This document shows positions 10,610 to 64,000 of a stretch of 64,000 nt of DNA, piece after piece. The notes beneath the pieces were generated by a model. That model was given only the letters and a program-made list of their open reading frames with translations. It searched no databases and was not told where the DNA came from. The stretch lies in contig CAMASH010000001.1 in the NCBI GenBank assembly GCA_945860745.1, positions 44,700 through 108,699 of the forward strand, given 5' to 3'. Numbering within the stretch: the stretch's first letter is position 1; each line of letters starts with the position of its first letter. The position numbers were made by a program, and so were the translations under genes. The DNA is from Chthoniobacter flavus. GTDB lineage: Bacteria; Verrucomicrobiota; Verrucomicrobiia; Chthoniobacterales; Terrimicrobiaceae.

Positions 10610-11215
10610 ATGTCCGATATCACGCCCTCACTCGTCAAGGAACTCCGCGAAAAAACCAACGCGGGAATGATGGATTGCAAGCGCGCGCTCGTTGAGGCCG
10701 CCGGTGATCTGGCCAAGGCTGAGGAAATCCTGCGCAAGAAAGGCATCGCCAGCGCCGGGAAAAAATCCTCCCGCGTGGCCAAGGAGGGCATCGTGGCCTC
10801 CTACATCCATCTGCAAGGGAAAGTCGGCGTATTGGTCGAGATCAACTGCGAGACGGACTTTGTGGCCAAGAACGAAATCTTCCGCGAATTCGTCAAAGAT
10901 ATCACCCTGCACATCGCCGCTGCGCATCCGCTTTACGTCTCGCGTGAACTCGTTCCCGACAACCTCATCCACGCTGAACGCGAAATTTTTGCCGCCCAAG
11001 TGGCGAACAAGCCGGCCAACATCGTGGACAAGATCGTCGATGGAAAGATCGACAAGTTCTATAGCACGGTGTGTTTGCTGGAGCAGGCTTTCATCAAAAA
11101 TCCTGATCTCAGCATCAAGGATTTGGTGAACTCGAAGATTGCGGAACTCGGCGAGAATATCGTGATCCGCCGCTTCACCCGCTACATGATCGGCGAGGAT
11201 CTCGGGGAGCGATAA
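10610..11215 (+). CDS. tsf: Translation elongation factor Ts (short ~200-aa form)
   Basis: N-terminal UBA-like motif (VKELREKTNAGMMDCKRAL…) and …VEINCETDFVAKN…; located directly after rpsB. Confidence 0.93.
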   Translation: MSDITPSLVKELREKTNAGMMDCKRALVEAAGDLAKAEEILRKKGIASAGKKSSRVAKEGIVASYIHLQGKVGVLVEINCETDFVAKNEIFREFVKDITLHIAAAHPLYVSRELVPDNLIHAEREIFAAQVANKPANIVDKIVDGKIDKFYSTVCLLEQAFIKNPDLSIKDLVNSKIAELGENIVIRRFTRYMIGEDLGER

Positions 11216-61981: not shown

Positions 61982-62488
61982 ATGAATCGAACACTCGCCA
62001 CCCTTTTCCTTATGAACCTTTTCGGATTTCTCGCCAAAGCCGAGCCCATCGCCGTGGGCTCACCCGCGCCTGGGCTTTCTGCGCTTGATCAGGACGGCAG
62101 CCCGGTGTCATTCGCCGCCGTCTACGCGCGCGGAATCACGCTGGTCTATTTTTATCCGAAGGCCGACACGCCCGGCTGCACCGCCCAGGCCTGCTCGCTG
62201 CGCGACTCGTTCGCGGATCTGCGGGCGGACGGATTGCAAATCCTTGGCGTGAGTCACGACACGCCCGCGTCGCAGAAAAAATTCCAGGAAAAATACACGC
62301 TGCCGTTCACCCTCATTTCCGACCACGATGGAAAAGTCGCGGCGGCTTTCGGAGTGCCCTCCCTGCTGGGATTCACCAGCCGCCAGTCCTTCCTCATCAA
62401 GGATGGCAAGGTGGCGTGGAATTCCTTGAAAGCAAAAACCAGCGATCACGCCGCGGAGGTGCAGGCGGCCTTGGACTCTTTGAAATAA
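61982..62488 (+). CDS. bcp: Thioredoxin-dependent peroxiredoxin, Bcp type, with signal peptide
   Basis: …VGSPAPGLSALDQDG…LVYFYPKADTPGCTAQAC…FQEKYTLPFTLISD…. Confidence 0.85.
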   Translation: MNRTLATLFLMNLFGFLAKAEPIAVGSPAPGLSALDQDGSPVSFAAVYARGITLVYFYPKADTPGCTAQACSLRDSFADLRADGLQILGVSHDTPASQKKFQEKYTLPFTLISDHDGKVAAAFGVPSLLGFTSRQSFLIKDGKVAWNSLKAKTSDHAAEVQAALDSLK

Positions 62489-62588
62489 CGCGTTGTCTTT
62501 CTTTTGATCCTGTGGATTATTGTCATCCCTCGCTGGCGATTCTGTATTGAACTTCAAAAAGAATTACGCGAAGGATGCTTCCGGTTAC

Positions 62589-62660
62589 GGGTTGGTAGCT
62601 CAATGGTAGAGCAGTACCCTTTTAAGGTATTGGTTGTGGGTTCGAGTCCCACCCAACCCA
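62589..62660 (+). tRNA. tRNA-Lys (anticodon UUU)
   Basis: Hand-folded cloverleaf: acceptor GGGTTGG/CCAACCC, D arm GCTC-AATGGTA-GAGC, anticodon arm GTACC-CTTTTAA-GGTAT (UUU at 34-36), variable TGGTT, T arm GTGGG-TTCGAGT-CCCAC, discriminator A. CCA is not encoded. Confidence 0.9.
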
Positions 62661-62717
62661 CTCTCTGAAAACCTCAGAGAACCGCATGAATAAAGGCTCT
62701 GCGGGCCTTTTGCCATC

Positions 62718-62819
62718 ATGCACAATGCTGCACGATGCTGCACATAAACACCGGCATTTTTGGCGACATTTGGCGACAGATTGGCGACAAATGCCCCCTG
62801 CATGGCGCATCACGGGGGC
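62718..62819. repeat. Two sets of direct repeats spaced about one helical turn apart, plus a GC hairpin
   Basis: ATGCTGCAC at 62725 and 62735 (with ATGCAC at 62718). TTGGCGACA at 62760, 62770 and 62781. Then GCCCCC (62793-62798) … GGGGGC (62814-62819). Confidence 0.8.
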
Positions 62820-62825
62820 GTCGAA

Positions 62826-63070
62826 ATGTAAAATCGGTTTTACATATCCAAAACGGGTTTTGGATTTAGGCATATTCCAAACCGGGTTTTGGATTTAGGC
62901 ATATTCCAAACCCGTTTGGAATATGGGCAAATCCAACACAGTGTTGGATTTGGGCAAAAGTGAAACTCGTTTAACTTTCGGGCAAACTCAAAACCGGTTT
63001 GGAATTTGGGCAAAAGAGAAACCGGTTTCTGATTTGGGCAAATGAAGAACAGGTTCTTCATTTCGGCAAA
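62826..63070. repeat. Tandem array of ~9 units (26-29 bp), each a variable 14-20-bp palindrome plus a conserved TTTGGGCAAA-type linker
   Basis: Units are read directly from the sequence (listed in findings). The only ORF across it (62840-63061, minus) simply translates the repeat. Confidence 0.85.
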
Positions 63071-63370
63071 TGTAGAATGCCCTGCCCCTGCTAGGGAATC
63101 AAAACGATTCCACGGTCAACCTCGCGCGTCGTTTTTCAGCCTGTTTGGCTAAAATGCGATCGCGATTCCTCAAATACCACAGGTGGCGGCATTTGCGGCG
63201 GTGGGCGATGCCAAGGCGTTTTCTACGCATCGATCCACTCCTCATCAACTCCCGCACCGAAAGCTGGATCGGCCTGCTGGCGTTTCAACTCGCGCAGGAT
63301 AATTTCAACAGCCTCGCGGGCGTTTTCGTTCTGATCACTGATCTCGTTTTCGGTTTCTGGGTGCATGGGT

Positions 63371-63411
63371 TTTAAAAGGTGCGCTCGTCGTGCGCCATGG
63401 TCGACGAGCGT
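63371..63411 (-). terminator. Putative intrinsic terminator of the minus-strand operon entering from the right window edge
   Basis: On the minus strand: ACGCTCGTCG - 11-nt loop - CGACGAGCGC, followed by ACCTTTTAAAA. It lies 65 nt downstream of the 63476 stop. Confidence 0.45.
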
Positions 63412-63475
63412 GATTCCCGGCAATGCCGTGATGAAACGGTGGCGGCGGGATTTGCTCAGGCAAAAAAGGGTTCGG

Positions 63476-63787
63476 TCATCGGGCGGTTTGCAAGAATGCG
63501 GGCCACTGACTGCCCTGCACCGCGCTTGGATGTGGCATCGGAGTGATGTGCCTCGCGATCTCGGAGATGCGATGCTCGCATGGCATGTTGGACGGGAAGA
63601 TCAAGTTCGTGTCGAGGGCGGTTTGGTCGACGACCTTCCAGAGGGCGTCCTCTAATTTTGCGGTGGGCATGTCGTGGTCAAACTGGAAACGCTTGCCCCT
63701 TGCACGAAAAAGCCGTTGCAAGCGGTCGAGGTTGGCCATGACAAGCGGCCTGAGCGGGTCGGGTGCTTTGCGCCAGTTGAGAATCAT
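63476..63787 (-). CDS. Hypothetical protein (103 aa)
   Basis: ORF whose ATG lies 4 nt after the stop of the upstream partial ORF. No family recognised. Lower GC than the core genes. Confidence 0.4.
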   Translation of the reverse strand: MILNWRKAPDPLRPLVMANLDRLQRLFRARGKRFQFDHDMPTAKLEDALWKVVDQTALDTNLIFPSNMPCEHRISEIARHITPMPHPSAVQGSQWPAFLQTAR

Positions 63788-63791
63788 AAAC

Positions 63792-64000
63792 TCAGCCCTC
63801 GACGAGGTCGCGAAGCCATTGCACCGAACAGCCGCCCCAAAATTTAGGAGAACGCATTTCGGCGGCGAAATAATTCCGCAGATACCACGCCTCCAGAAAA
63901 AGCGAGGTCAAGATCGGGTCGGCGTGCAGGACAAAAACCTCATTCCAACTGTCGGTGTAGACCTGCTCGGTGAGAGCCTGCCCGTATTTTAAGAAACGCT
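63792..64000 (-). CDS. Hypothetical protein, C-terminal fragment (5' end outside the window)
   Basis: Open minus-strand frame from the window edge: …KYGQALTEQVYTDSWNEVFVLHADPILTSLFLEAWYLRNYFAAEMRSPKFWGGCSVQWLRDLVEG*. No family recognised. Confidence 0.4.
   Translation of the reverse strand, partial: RFLKYGQALTEQVYTDSWNEVFVLHADPILTSLFLEAWYLRNYFAAEMRSPKFWGGCSVQWLRDLVEG

Follow-up and report, generated by a model that had tools for sequence, protein, structure and literature searches.

Close to the right-hand end of the Chthoniobacter flavus DNA analysed here (a stretch of 64,000 nucleotides, referred to as the window), nine short palindromes stand in tandem just downstream of a tRNA-Lys gene. 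The array belongs to an element of 8-10 kb that has integrated at the 3' end of that tRNA, and is classed here among the arrays of repeated cis-acting sites that mobile elements carry. An earlier note on the window had drawn attention to palindromes whose two arms change together while the linker between units is conserved, and had offered a multi-hairpin RNA or a protein-binding array in explanation. The two features on which the account turns are as follows.

62823-63075, no strand assigned: terminal palindrome array of nine units, with dyad arms of 7-10 bp and centres of 0-4 nt
62589-62661, plus strand: tRNA-Lys (anticodon ttt), found by ARAGORN and by the Rfam tRNA model (77.6 bits); its 3' end forms the left junction (attL side) of the element

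The palindromes are mostly 28 bp apart and begin, as read from the sequence, with ATGTAAAA-tcgg-TTTTACAT at 62826-62845 and TCCAAAAC-gg-GTTTTGGA at 62847-62864. Reading of the sequence from 62300 to 64000 found all nine palindromes and their linkers where the earlier note had placed them, within an effective span of 62823-63075. Tandem Repeats Finder reports a period of 28 with 7.0 copies over 62849-63043, and a separate repeat search returned the same families. Three details of the earlier description required amendment, the effective span just given being the first. The spacing given there (26-29 bp) holds for seven junctions, which measure 27.5-29 bp, but not for the first, where units 1 and 2 lie 20 bp apart from centre to centre and are joined by 'TA' only, without a linker. 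In addition, three of the nine palindromes are imperfect and carry one mismatch each: a C.T mismatch or bulge in unit 3, G.A in unit 6 and A.G in unit 7. The linker is of the TTTGGGCAAA type, with the fuller form (A)TTTGGGCA(A/T)A(T), and stands 3' of units 2-9 with its G-rich form on the plus strand. It is itself a near-dyad, ATTTG-GG-CAAAT, in which polarity comes from the central GG only, and no other occurrence of it was found in the window, whose host part amounts to 62.6 kb.

The GC content is 0.435 over 62800-63099 against about 0.60 nearby, in keeping with the low-GC setting beside tRNA-Lys that had been described. The array was also rightly supposed to be non-coding, because its 28-nt period is no multiple of 3, and a coding repeat was rejected on the same ground. 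A Chi-like or polar motif was likewise dropped, as GGGCAAA occurs 13 times on the plus and 6 times on the minus strand of the host part, with a Markov expectation of 11.6 for the plus strand and hence no over-representation.

Arm complementarity and its origin

Contigs of the same species were obtained by exact-protein look-up. The array is identical in L001 and L003, and L003 has the same sequence as the window all the way from the host genes to the end of the array, then becomes visibly more diverged to the right (96% identity over the whole region); a recombination breakpoint at the end of the array is therefore indicated. At L003:8456-8495, a 40-nt insertion adds two units after window position 63075, giving 11 terminal units against the nine of the window. 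An orthologous terminal array, again of nine units, is present in L253, in which the neighbouring genes are about 85% identical in DNA. Here approximately three of the nine units are recognisably common to both arrays; the other stems differ, with the linkers and the 28-bp spacing kept, and the 150 nt on the tRNA side of the array are almost identical by eye. L253 also possesses a second, internal array of six units, 2 kb inside the element, and the same internal array, with four units, is found in L254. It is placed between the small-terminase-like region and the gene for a 150-aa protein, and ends about 40 nt before the latter. L253 and L254 disagree at two of its stem pairs, each of which has altered on both sides. 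The G-rich linker strand of the internal array is the sense strand of the genes, so that it is inverted relative to the terminal array, and the two inverted arrays of L253 bracket a module of 150-, 227- and 103-aa genes. The three array-bearing variants are mutually only 85-89% identical in DNA.

Thirty units were pooled from five arrays (window, the extra units of L003, L253 terminal, L253 internal and L254 internal) and gave a near gap-free alignment. Within a unit, the arms match at 10.27 of 13 positions, compared with 7.73 between units. When right arms were dealt among the 30 units, none of 20000 permutations reached the observed complementarity, and only 2 of 20000 did so when the nine window units were treated alone. 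Paired cells account for 82.7% of the 30-unit alignment against 67.7% in shuffles, and cells with both sides changed number 69 against 23 +/- 4.7, a value attained by 0 of 500 shuffles. If the partner is shifted by 1-3 columns, pairing falls to only 28-46%. Folding lies well below that of dinucleotide shuffles on both strands (z = -6.1 and -8.3), with 0 of 200 shuffles reaching either value, and 21 of the 25 junctions in all arrays are spaced at 27.5-29 bp. At three of the middle stem columns all 30 units are paired despite the presence of 2-4 pair types, whereas the outer CAAA/TTTG columns are paired in 14 and 16 of 30 units and yet are conserved in sequence. Because the outer columns are conserved though paired in about half of the units, and the middle columns vary yet pair, the parse into a variable palindrome and a sequence-conserved linker is the right one. 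The linker is thus a sequence motif and not part of the stem, and is the constrained portion of the unit. The feature is real and statistically solid, and the central observation of the earlier note, that arms co-vary while the linker is held, is upheld by both the permutations and the column statistics.

The distribution of the unit is narrow. A covariance model of the unit, a check proposed in the earlier note, was searched over 195 kb that included the 62.6 kb of window host DNA and the host flanks of L361 and L363. Matches fell only inside the arrays, apart from one weak match in each of the array-less loci L007, L251, L252 and L255, and no array was found elsewhere in the 195 kb. Genome and metagenome contigs were scanned for GGGCAAA-N19-23-GGGCAAA-N19-23-GGGCAAA, and the matches listed included unrelated simple tandem or coding repeats and no variable palindromes. 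A search of IMG/VR for TTGGGCAAA-N15-22-TTGGGCAAA gave no similar array, and the literature search returned nothing relevant on tandem hairpin arrays in satellites or pac sites.

The manner in which the arms co-vary points to DNA rather than RNA. On its own strand, a structured RNA would be expected to accept G.U pairs and to keep A.C rare. Among 270 stem cells, 241 are Watson-Crick, 9 are G.T, 8 are A.C and 12 are other mismatches; G.T being about as rare as A.C, wobble pairs are not tolerated and neither strand is favoured. Columns alternate between A-T and G-C without G.T intermediates, local fold energies are the same on both strands in all five arrays, giving no strand choice, and in 19 of 30 units a C-G pair stands beside a 2-nt centre, where no hairpin loop could close. 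Comparison of the window with L253 shows that unit 1 has undergone a T-A to C-G double change (ATGTAAAA/TTTTACAT against ATGCAAAA/TTTTGCAT), and that orthologous units have reverse-complementary dinucleotides at their centres: GG against CC in the TCCAAAAC unit and AG against CT in the TGAAGAAC unit. Template switching by DNA polymerase homogenises the arms of inverted repeats and inverts the spacer between them, and perfect hairpin stems have been demonstrated to arise and to be preserved in this way, as two published accounts describe (PMC8604942, PMC8794818). The matching arm changes look like replication template switching, in which one arm is copied from the other, and not like RNA folding. 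Spacer inversion together with almost purely Watson-Crick pairing therefore indicates a mutational mechanism and provides no proof of selection for a hairpin. The step taken in the earlier note from co-varying arms to a selected hairpin potential consequently does not follow, as arms can be homogenised without selection by the process described in PMC8604942 and PMC8794818. The complementarity acts at the level of DNA, and the first suggestion of that note, an RNA sponge of many hairpins, is disfavoured by the rarity of G.T, the 2-nt and inverted centres and the opposite orientation of the two arrays.

The tRNA-Lys element and its relatives

The placement of the array inside an integrated element, which had been proposed from its position at a presumed island boundary, was confirmed by the synteny of the tRNA-Lys locus in other genomes. 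In the sister genome L361 (GCA_041746635.1), the same NRPS-like, ilvD, TPR and AhpC genes are present, and host genes resume immediately behind tRNA-Lys; agreement with the window breaks off straight after the tRNA 3' end, showing an empty site. The contigs L002 and L004 stop at window positions 62660 and 62644, within about 17 bases of the tRNA 3' end, which is the pattern expected of a population that is polymorphic for the insertion. L253 shares the AhpC/tRNA-Lys neighbourhood of the window and is occupied, while L363 and L364 have only a short, array-free remnant after tRNA-Lys. In L363, which belongs to a related species, positions 10654-10800 contain the first ~50 nt of the element, then about four TTGGCAGC-type repeats and then host genes, without an array or element genes.

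The whole element is visible in L253, where it measures approximately 8-9 kb. It begins with an integrase (PF00589, 2.8e-8), a CI-like protein (weak match), an excisionase-type HTH_17 protein (4.8e-8), a 233-aa protein and a DnaB-like helicase (phrog_19, 4.2e-9). These are followed by two small open reading frames (ORFs), of which that of 183 aa is small-terminase-like, by a remnant of an ORF resembling a helix-turn-helix (HTH) protein, and by the internal array. Next come the 150-, 227-, 103- and 72-aa genes and, last, the terminal array, a set of three 10-bp direct repeats and tRNA-Lys. The small-terminase-like protein gives modest matches to phrog_57 in three family members (9.4e-5, 1.4e-6 and 2.3e-5). 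Phage satellites of the PICI (phage-inducible chromosomal island) type are small tRNA-inserted islands that carry an integrase, an excisionase/AlpA-type regulator, a replication module and a packaging-redirection gene, and lack structural genes. The 8-10 kb elements described here show an integrase, HTH_17, a DnaB-like or AAA_25 helicase and the modest phrog_57 matches (1e-4 to 1e-6), and on their gene content, with no known helper phage, they are best described as resembling a PICI-like phage satellite. Their proteins are rare: the 227-aa family comprises 22 clusters in 5.8 billion proteins and has no relative in IMG/VR, and a profile search of 1.84 billion representative proteins gave 12 members of the 150-aa family, without informative domains. 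The closest named homologue of a host gene, at 67% identity, is from a metagenome-assembled genome of Terrimicrobiaceae (Verrucomicrobiota).

Several further features of L253 deserve mention. Directly 3' of the DnaB-like helicase gene (L253:4321-4470) are at least six copies of TACCCTT and three to four inverted copies, AAGGGTA, around the GC hairpin GCCCCCTTACAGGGGGGC; this cluster is probably the replication origin of the element, as judged from its sequence. Upstream of the internal array (L253:5286-5754), an ORF that is intact (83 aa) in array-less elements is truncated. Behind it, in a different frame, comes an HTH-like stretch (KEIAKAAEVSTGQV), the C-terminal end of which has not been kept in L254. 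These arrangements suggest gene decay around the insertion of the internal array in L253. At L253:7640-7720, the 72-aa gene contains an internal duplication of about 38 nt, the copies being separated by a segment with the perfect 22-bp palindrome GACCGTGCCCATGGGCACGGTC, and the encoded protein is longer than the window version as a result.

In the window, the part of the element around the terminal array carries the following features.

62693-62712, plus strand: terminator-like hairpin AAGGC-tctgcgg-GCCTT followed by TT(T), read from the sequence
62719-62748, plus strand: TGCACRATGC direct repeats in 2.6-3 copies, found by Tandem Repeats Finder and a repeat search; also in L253
62759-62789, plus strand: three tandem 10-bp direct repeats, TTTGGCGACA / TTTGGCGACA / ATTGGCGACA, found by two repeat searches
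62793-62819, plus strand: GC-rich hairpin GCCCCC-N15-GGGGGC directly before the array, read from the sequence; kept in L253
63099-63230, minus strand: small arginine-rich ORF of 43 aa (MRRKRLGIAHRRKCRHLWYLRNRDRILAKQAEKRRARLTVESF), from the ORF list
63223-63423, minus strand: small acidic protein, a 66-aa ORF (49 aa as called in a related contig), without a family match
63476-63787, minus strand: 103-aa element protein, present as the exact protein in two contigs
63792-64000, minus strand: 3' part of the 227-aa gene, which runs off the window end; aligned to L003 9219-9902

The hairpin segment at 62693-62712 was not called by a simple terminator scan, and recurs at the start of sister elements after tRNA-Glu (91% identical) and tRNA-Ser (L006). 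The repeats at 62759-62789 are putative arm-type binding sites of the integrase, for which the P'1-P'3 sites of lambda offer an analogue. The ATG of the 43-aa ORF overlaps the stop codon of the upstream gene (ATGCGTAG), and the ORF ends about 25 nt from the array; it is kept in L003, L253 and L256, deleted in the tRNA-Ser element of L006, and uncalled as a gene in public contigs. Searches of Pfam, PHROG, NCBIfam and PADLOC gave no match for the 227-, 103-, 66/72- and 43-aa proteins, and an AlphaFold2 model of the 227-aa protein, which is helical, gave no fold match.

Sister elements with the same 150-, 227- and 103-aa genes are inserted at tRNA-Ser and tRNA-Glu (both L006), tRNA-Asp (L009) and tRNA-Leu (L007, L251, L252 and L255-258), and the Ser, Glu and Asp copies were recovered from metagenome assemblies that also yielded the same-species contigs of the window. 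No array is present in any of the tRNA-Ser, -Glu, -Asp and -Leu sister elements examined. Their tRNA sites were mapped as follows.

L006:1057-1143, L006:7168-7242, L009:11460-11534 and L007:3092-3173: tRNA sites of the sister elements

Each sister element has its own tandem direct repeat of 9-11 bp about 100 nt from the tRNA, and at the place equivalent to that of the window repeats these read TGCCAAGTAAT (tRNA-Ser), TATTGGCAC (tRNA-Glu) and TTGTCAGGAA (tRNA-Asp). These repeats probably serve the integrase as arm-type sites. Beside the homologous internal site, some 65 nt ahead of the 150-aa gene on the same strand, all eight Leu-type loci examined carry a single ATTTGGGCGAAT, and the weak unit-like match of the array-less Leu-type elements (19.9 bits) falls at this site. 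These relatives appear, from sequence comparison, to carry a precursor of the array, or proto-unit. The usual arrangement is for an element to supply the 3' part of its tRNA. L007 shows the reverse, with a complete tRNA-Leu at the integrase end (L007:3092-3173) and the 5' half, to the anticodon loop, at the far end (L007:11150-11195).

Possible roles of the arrays

The reading tentatively preferred here, which falls short of being probable, is that the array is a cis-acting DNA site bound through its linkers by a protein of the satellite, in a manner similar to cosB/pac sites or to centromeres and operators. The linker (ATTTG-GG-CAAAT) of each 28-bp unit would be bound as double-stranded DNA by an element protein. 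The best candidate is the 150-aa winged-HTH/coiled-coil protein whose gene begins about 40 nt past the internal array, and the small-terminase-like protein encoded just upstream is the alternative. The presence of many sites at a fixed 28-bp spacing may permit assembly of a higher-order nucleoprotein complex, which might serve for packaging recognition (cosB/pac-like) or as a centromere- or operator-like landing pad. Template switching between arms would keep the variable palindromes complementary and invert the spacer, and units could be gained or lost through slippage on the linkers. The AlphaFold2 model of the 150-aa protein (mean pLDDT, the model's own confidence measure, 81) predicts a winged HTH of MerR/excisionase type at the N-terminus, with long helices behind it. 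Its first ~58 residues superimpose on MerR-type winged-HTH domains, among them RacA-DNA with template modelling (TM) scores of 0.70-0.72 (prob 0.98-1.0) and the DNA-binding domain of pSK1 Par with centromere DNA with a TM score of 0.85 (prob 0.98), and weaker matches were to terminase-related, Rpp, phage excisionase, MerR-like and HTH structures. The order of small-terminase-like gene, short ORF, internal array and winged-HTH gene is compatible with a cosB or pac site, the suggested role being deduced from position. It is further conceivable, although unlikely, that the paired inverted arrays constitute a previously undescribed cis signal of satellites, in which the linker is read by the winged-HTH or small-terminase-like protein, the symmetric palindromes are free to vary, and the whole serves as a site for satellite packaging or hijacking. 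The second suggestion of the earlier note, a centromere- or iteron-like binding array of an integrated element, is retained in its general direction and in the element that it supposed; no ParA-type partner was found, and the binding that it requires is a prediction.

A number of observations weigh against binding of this kind. All Foldseek E-values for the 150-aa protein are weak (0.02-1.2, with the RacA and pSK1 matches at 0.17-0.95), no Pfam HTH family scores above threshold, and searches of PDB sequences with the 150-, 183- and 233-aa proteins gave no match. The 150-aa and small-terminase-like proteins are also encoded by array-less sister elements, and the arrays are therefore dispensable for the family. 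The linker-like motif of the array-less elements is located inside the called 83-aa ORF, and its conservation there may thus be due to coding, and the internal array coincides with the truncation of this ORF, which array-less relatives keep whole. At 28 bp, the spacing represents 2.67 helical turns, so that bound proteins would not lie on one face of the helix. Moreover, palindromic spacers are not explained by binding and need the separate argument of template switching, and the evidence does not separate packaging from partition or regulation. The comparative base is also thin, with arrays in three element variants only.

Of the rival explanations, the arrays could possibly be a functionless or selfish minisatellite, hypermutable and palindromic, and this is a serious rival, although considered somewhat less plausible than protein binding. 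Slippage would expand a pair of proto-hairpin motifs, template switching would keep the arms alike while the stems change quickly, and the linkers would look conserved through an ordinary mutation rate and the microhomology that slippage uses. The absence of arrays from the tRNA-Ser, -Glu, -Asp and -Leu elements with the same genes would suit such an origin, as would the proto-unit in array-less relatives, the coincidence of the L253 internal array with ORF truncation, and the unit numbers that differ among close relatives (9 against 11 terminal, 6 against 4 internal). The same may be said of the sharing of only about three in nine terminal units between the window and L253 in spite of the near-identical adjoining 150 nt, and of the spacer inversions and lack of wobble pairs, which argue for a mutational mechanism of the kind set out in PMC8604942. 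However, one element keeps two arrays with the same linker in inverted orientation, and a neutral second array 2 kb away would demand an extra rare event; the same architecture persists in three variants that have drifted to 85-89% identity; and neighbouring stems are almost fully diverged while the 10-nt linker stays near its consensus at most junctions, which would require a very large gap in mutation rate between stem and linker. An action as RNA is rather improbable, whether as operon or 3'-end hairpins that stabilise, process, slow or terminate transcripts in the fashion of the repetitive extragenic palindromes (REP) and bacterial interspersed mosaic elements (BIME), or as a sponge presenting single-stranded UUUGGGCAAA. 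In its favour are folds well below shuffles on both strands, a short A-run and T-run flanking each hairpin, and the arginine-rich 43-aa ORF that ends 25 nt from the terminal array. The internal array also lies on the sense strand between co-directional genes, and the terminal array after the last gene, between convergent units; enterobacterial REP/BIME hairpins occupy such positions between cistrons and after last genes. Nevertheless, the near-equal G.T and A.C counts, the alternation of A-U with G-C without G.U intermediates, and pairing that runs up to a 2-nt centre unable to close an RNA loop all speak against it, and a single transcript would show UUUGGGCAAA from one array and UUUGCCCAAA from the other. 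Scans for sigma-70-like promoters and for terminators found none in or beside the arrays. No intrinsic terminator (GC-rich stem, then at least 5 T in 8 bases) is present inside the array on either strand, the stems being AT-rich and the T-runs just 3 long. In Rfam only tRNA passes, the best array matches being plant and animal microRNA precursor models at 16-26 bits against thresholds of 80-195.

Two other functions for bound DNA are both considered very improbable. The linkers might be extra, weak arm-type sites of the tRNA-Lys integrase, so that the arrays would enlarge the recombination complex or act as an integrase sink. Agreement of the linker TTTGGGCAAA at 7 of 10 positions with the repeats TTTGGCGACA, 35 nt before the array, is consistent with this, as is the finding that, among the elements with a known integration site (that of L254 being excepted), arrays occur only in those of the tRNA-Lys type. 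On the other hand, over 2 kb lie between the internal array and the attachment site, Leu-type elements carry a linker-like motif at the internal position while their integrase has another target, and no integrase arm region is known to have nine or more sites. Alternatively, the arrays might be replication iterons or copy-control sites flanking an initiator gene, in the manner of P1 incC/incA and the dyad-symmetric iterons of the lambda origin. The two arrays do bracket a module whose first product is a predicted DNA-binding protein, and this 150-aa protein matches the primase domain that binds DnaB, at a level below threshold (E = 0.0043 and 0.055). L253, the only complete array-bearing element, has a DnaB-type helicase module, and the array-less Leu-type elements have a primase-helicase module. 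Yet the TACCCTT cluster directly after the helicase gene is the more typical candidate, the units of the arrays are non-identical, no AT-rich unwinding region adjoins them, and the Pfam match is below threshold.

Compared with known systems, the array shares its working logic with centromere, iteron and cosB arrays, but here the dyad is variable and the spacer conserved. In lambda, cosB likewise consists of repeated binding elements directly upstream of a gene (Nu1) for a winged-HTH protein with a helical self-association region, and the present element also encodes a small-terminase-like protein. In contrast to the 4-11 units found here, cosB has three R elements and a site for integration host factor, with no variable palindromes between the R elements; no nicking site resembling cosN was identified in the present element, which has a second, inverted array 2 kb away. 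The centromeres sopC of F (12 units of 43 bp, each with a 7-bp inverted repeat) and par of pSK1 similarly have tandem units with dyads beside the gene of a small DNA-binding protein. The inverted repeat of sopC is the conserved part that is recognised, whereas here the arms vary and the linker is conserved. Furthermore, an integrated satellite has no obvious need of partition, the 28-bp spacing is out of helical phase, and the Pfam and PHROG annotations of the complete elements L253 and L007 include no ParA-, ParM- or TubZ-type partner. The iterons of P1 (incC/incA) and of the lambda origin resemble the present case in the two arrays around a gene module, in dyad-symmetric units and in a regular spacing of 20-30 bp, and differ in that their recognised arms are near-identical within a replicon. 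The candidate origin here is the other cluster, beside the helicase gene, and the arrays, with their non-identical units, lie 1.4 kb and 3.5 kb beyond that gene.

Resemblance to other palindromic repeats is more superficial. REP/BIME elements of enterobacteria and pseudomonads are also short, imperfect, extragenic palindromes whose stems evolve with complementarity kept. They are, however, dispersed genome-wide in hundreds together with a RAYT transposase, and their REPs alternate in orientation, unlike the 28-bp unit and conserved linker of the present arrays; a search of about 100 kb of host DNA gave no copy other than those in the arrays, and family scans of the element proteins, which covered the element only, showed no HUH-type family. 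With the attC sites of integrons there is a common retention of arm complementarity under varying sequence and recognition at the DNA level, but attC sites are 57-141 nt long, occur singly between gene cassettes and have R/L core sites and extrahelical bases, and no integron integrase is present here. The regular period of about 28 nt and the short palindromic elements recall CRISPR. Here the whole period is 28 bp, with a variable palindrome and a conserved linker of 10-12 nt, and there are no unique spacers of at least 25 nt; a conserved repeat with unique spacers of 25-50 nt is absent, and the arrangement is, as had been remarked in the earlier note, the reverse of CRISPR logic. A Racr-type mimic of a CRISPR repeat was set aside because the stems vary. 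A ToxI-like RNA of a type III toxin-antitoxin system, in which near-identical tandem repeats precede a terminator and a toxin gene on one strand, does not fit either, as the units differ strongly, no ORF follows either array in that layout and PADLOC gave no match among the neighbours.

The arrays provide a clean natural case of 'compensatory' co-variation of arms without RNA structure, and thereby a warning for searches for non-coding RNA that are based on covariation. They have also brought to light small satellite-like elements that are inserted at tRNA genes and form a rare family in a host of the Verrucomicrobiota type; the core proteins of this family are very narrowly distributed. If the arrays are landing pads for a protein, their layout, with a conserved spacer, a variable dyad and two inverted arrays, would be unlike that of known centromeres, iterons and cos sites, and would offer a direct handle on the packaging or control of the satellite.

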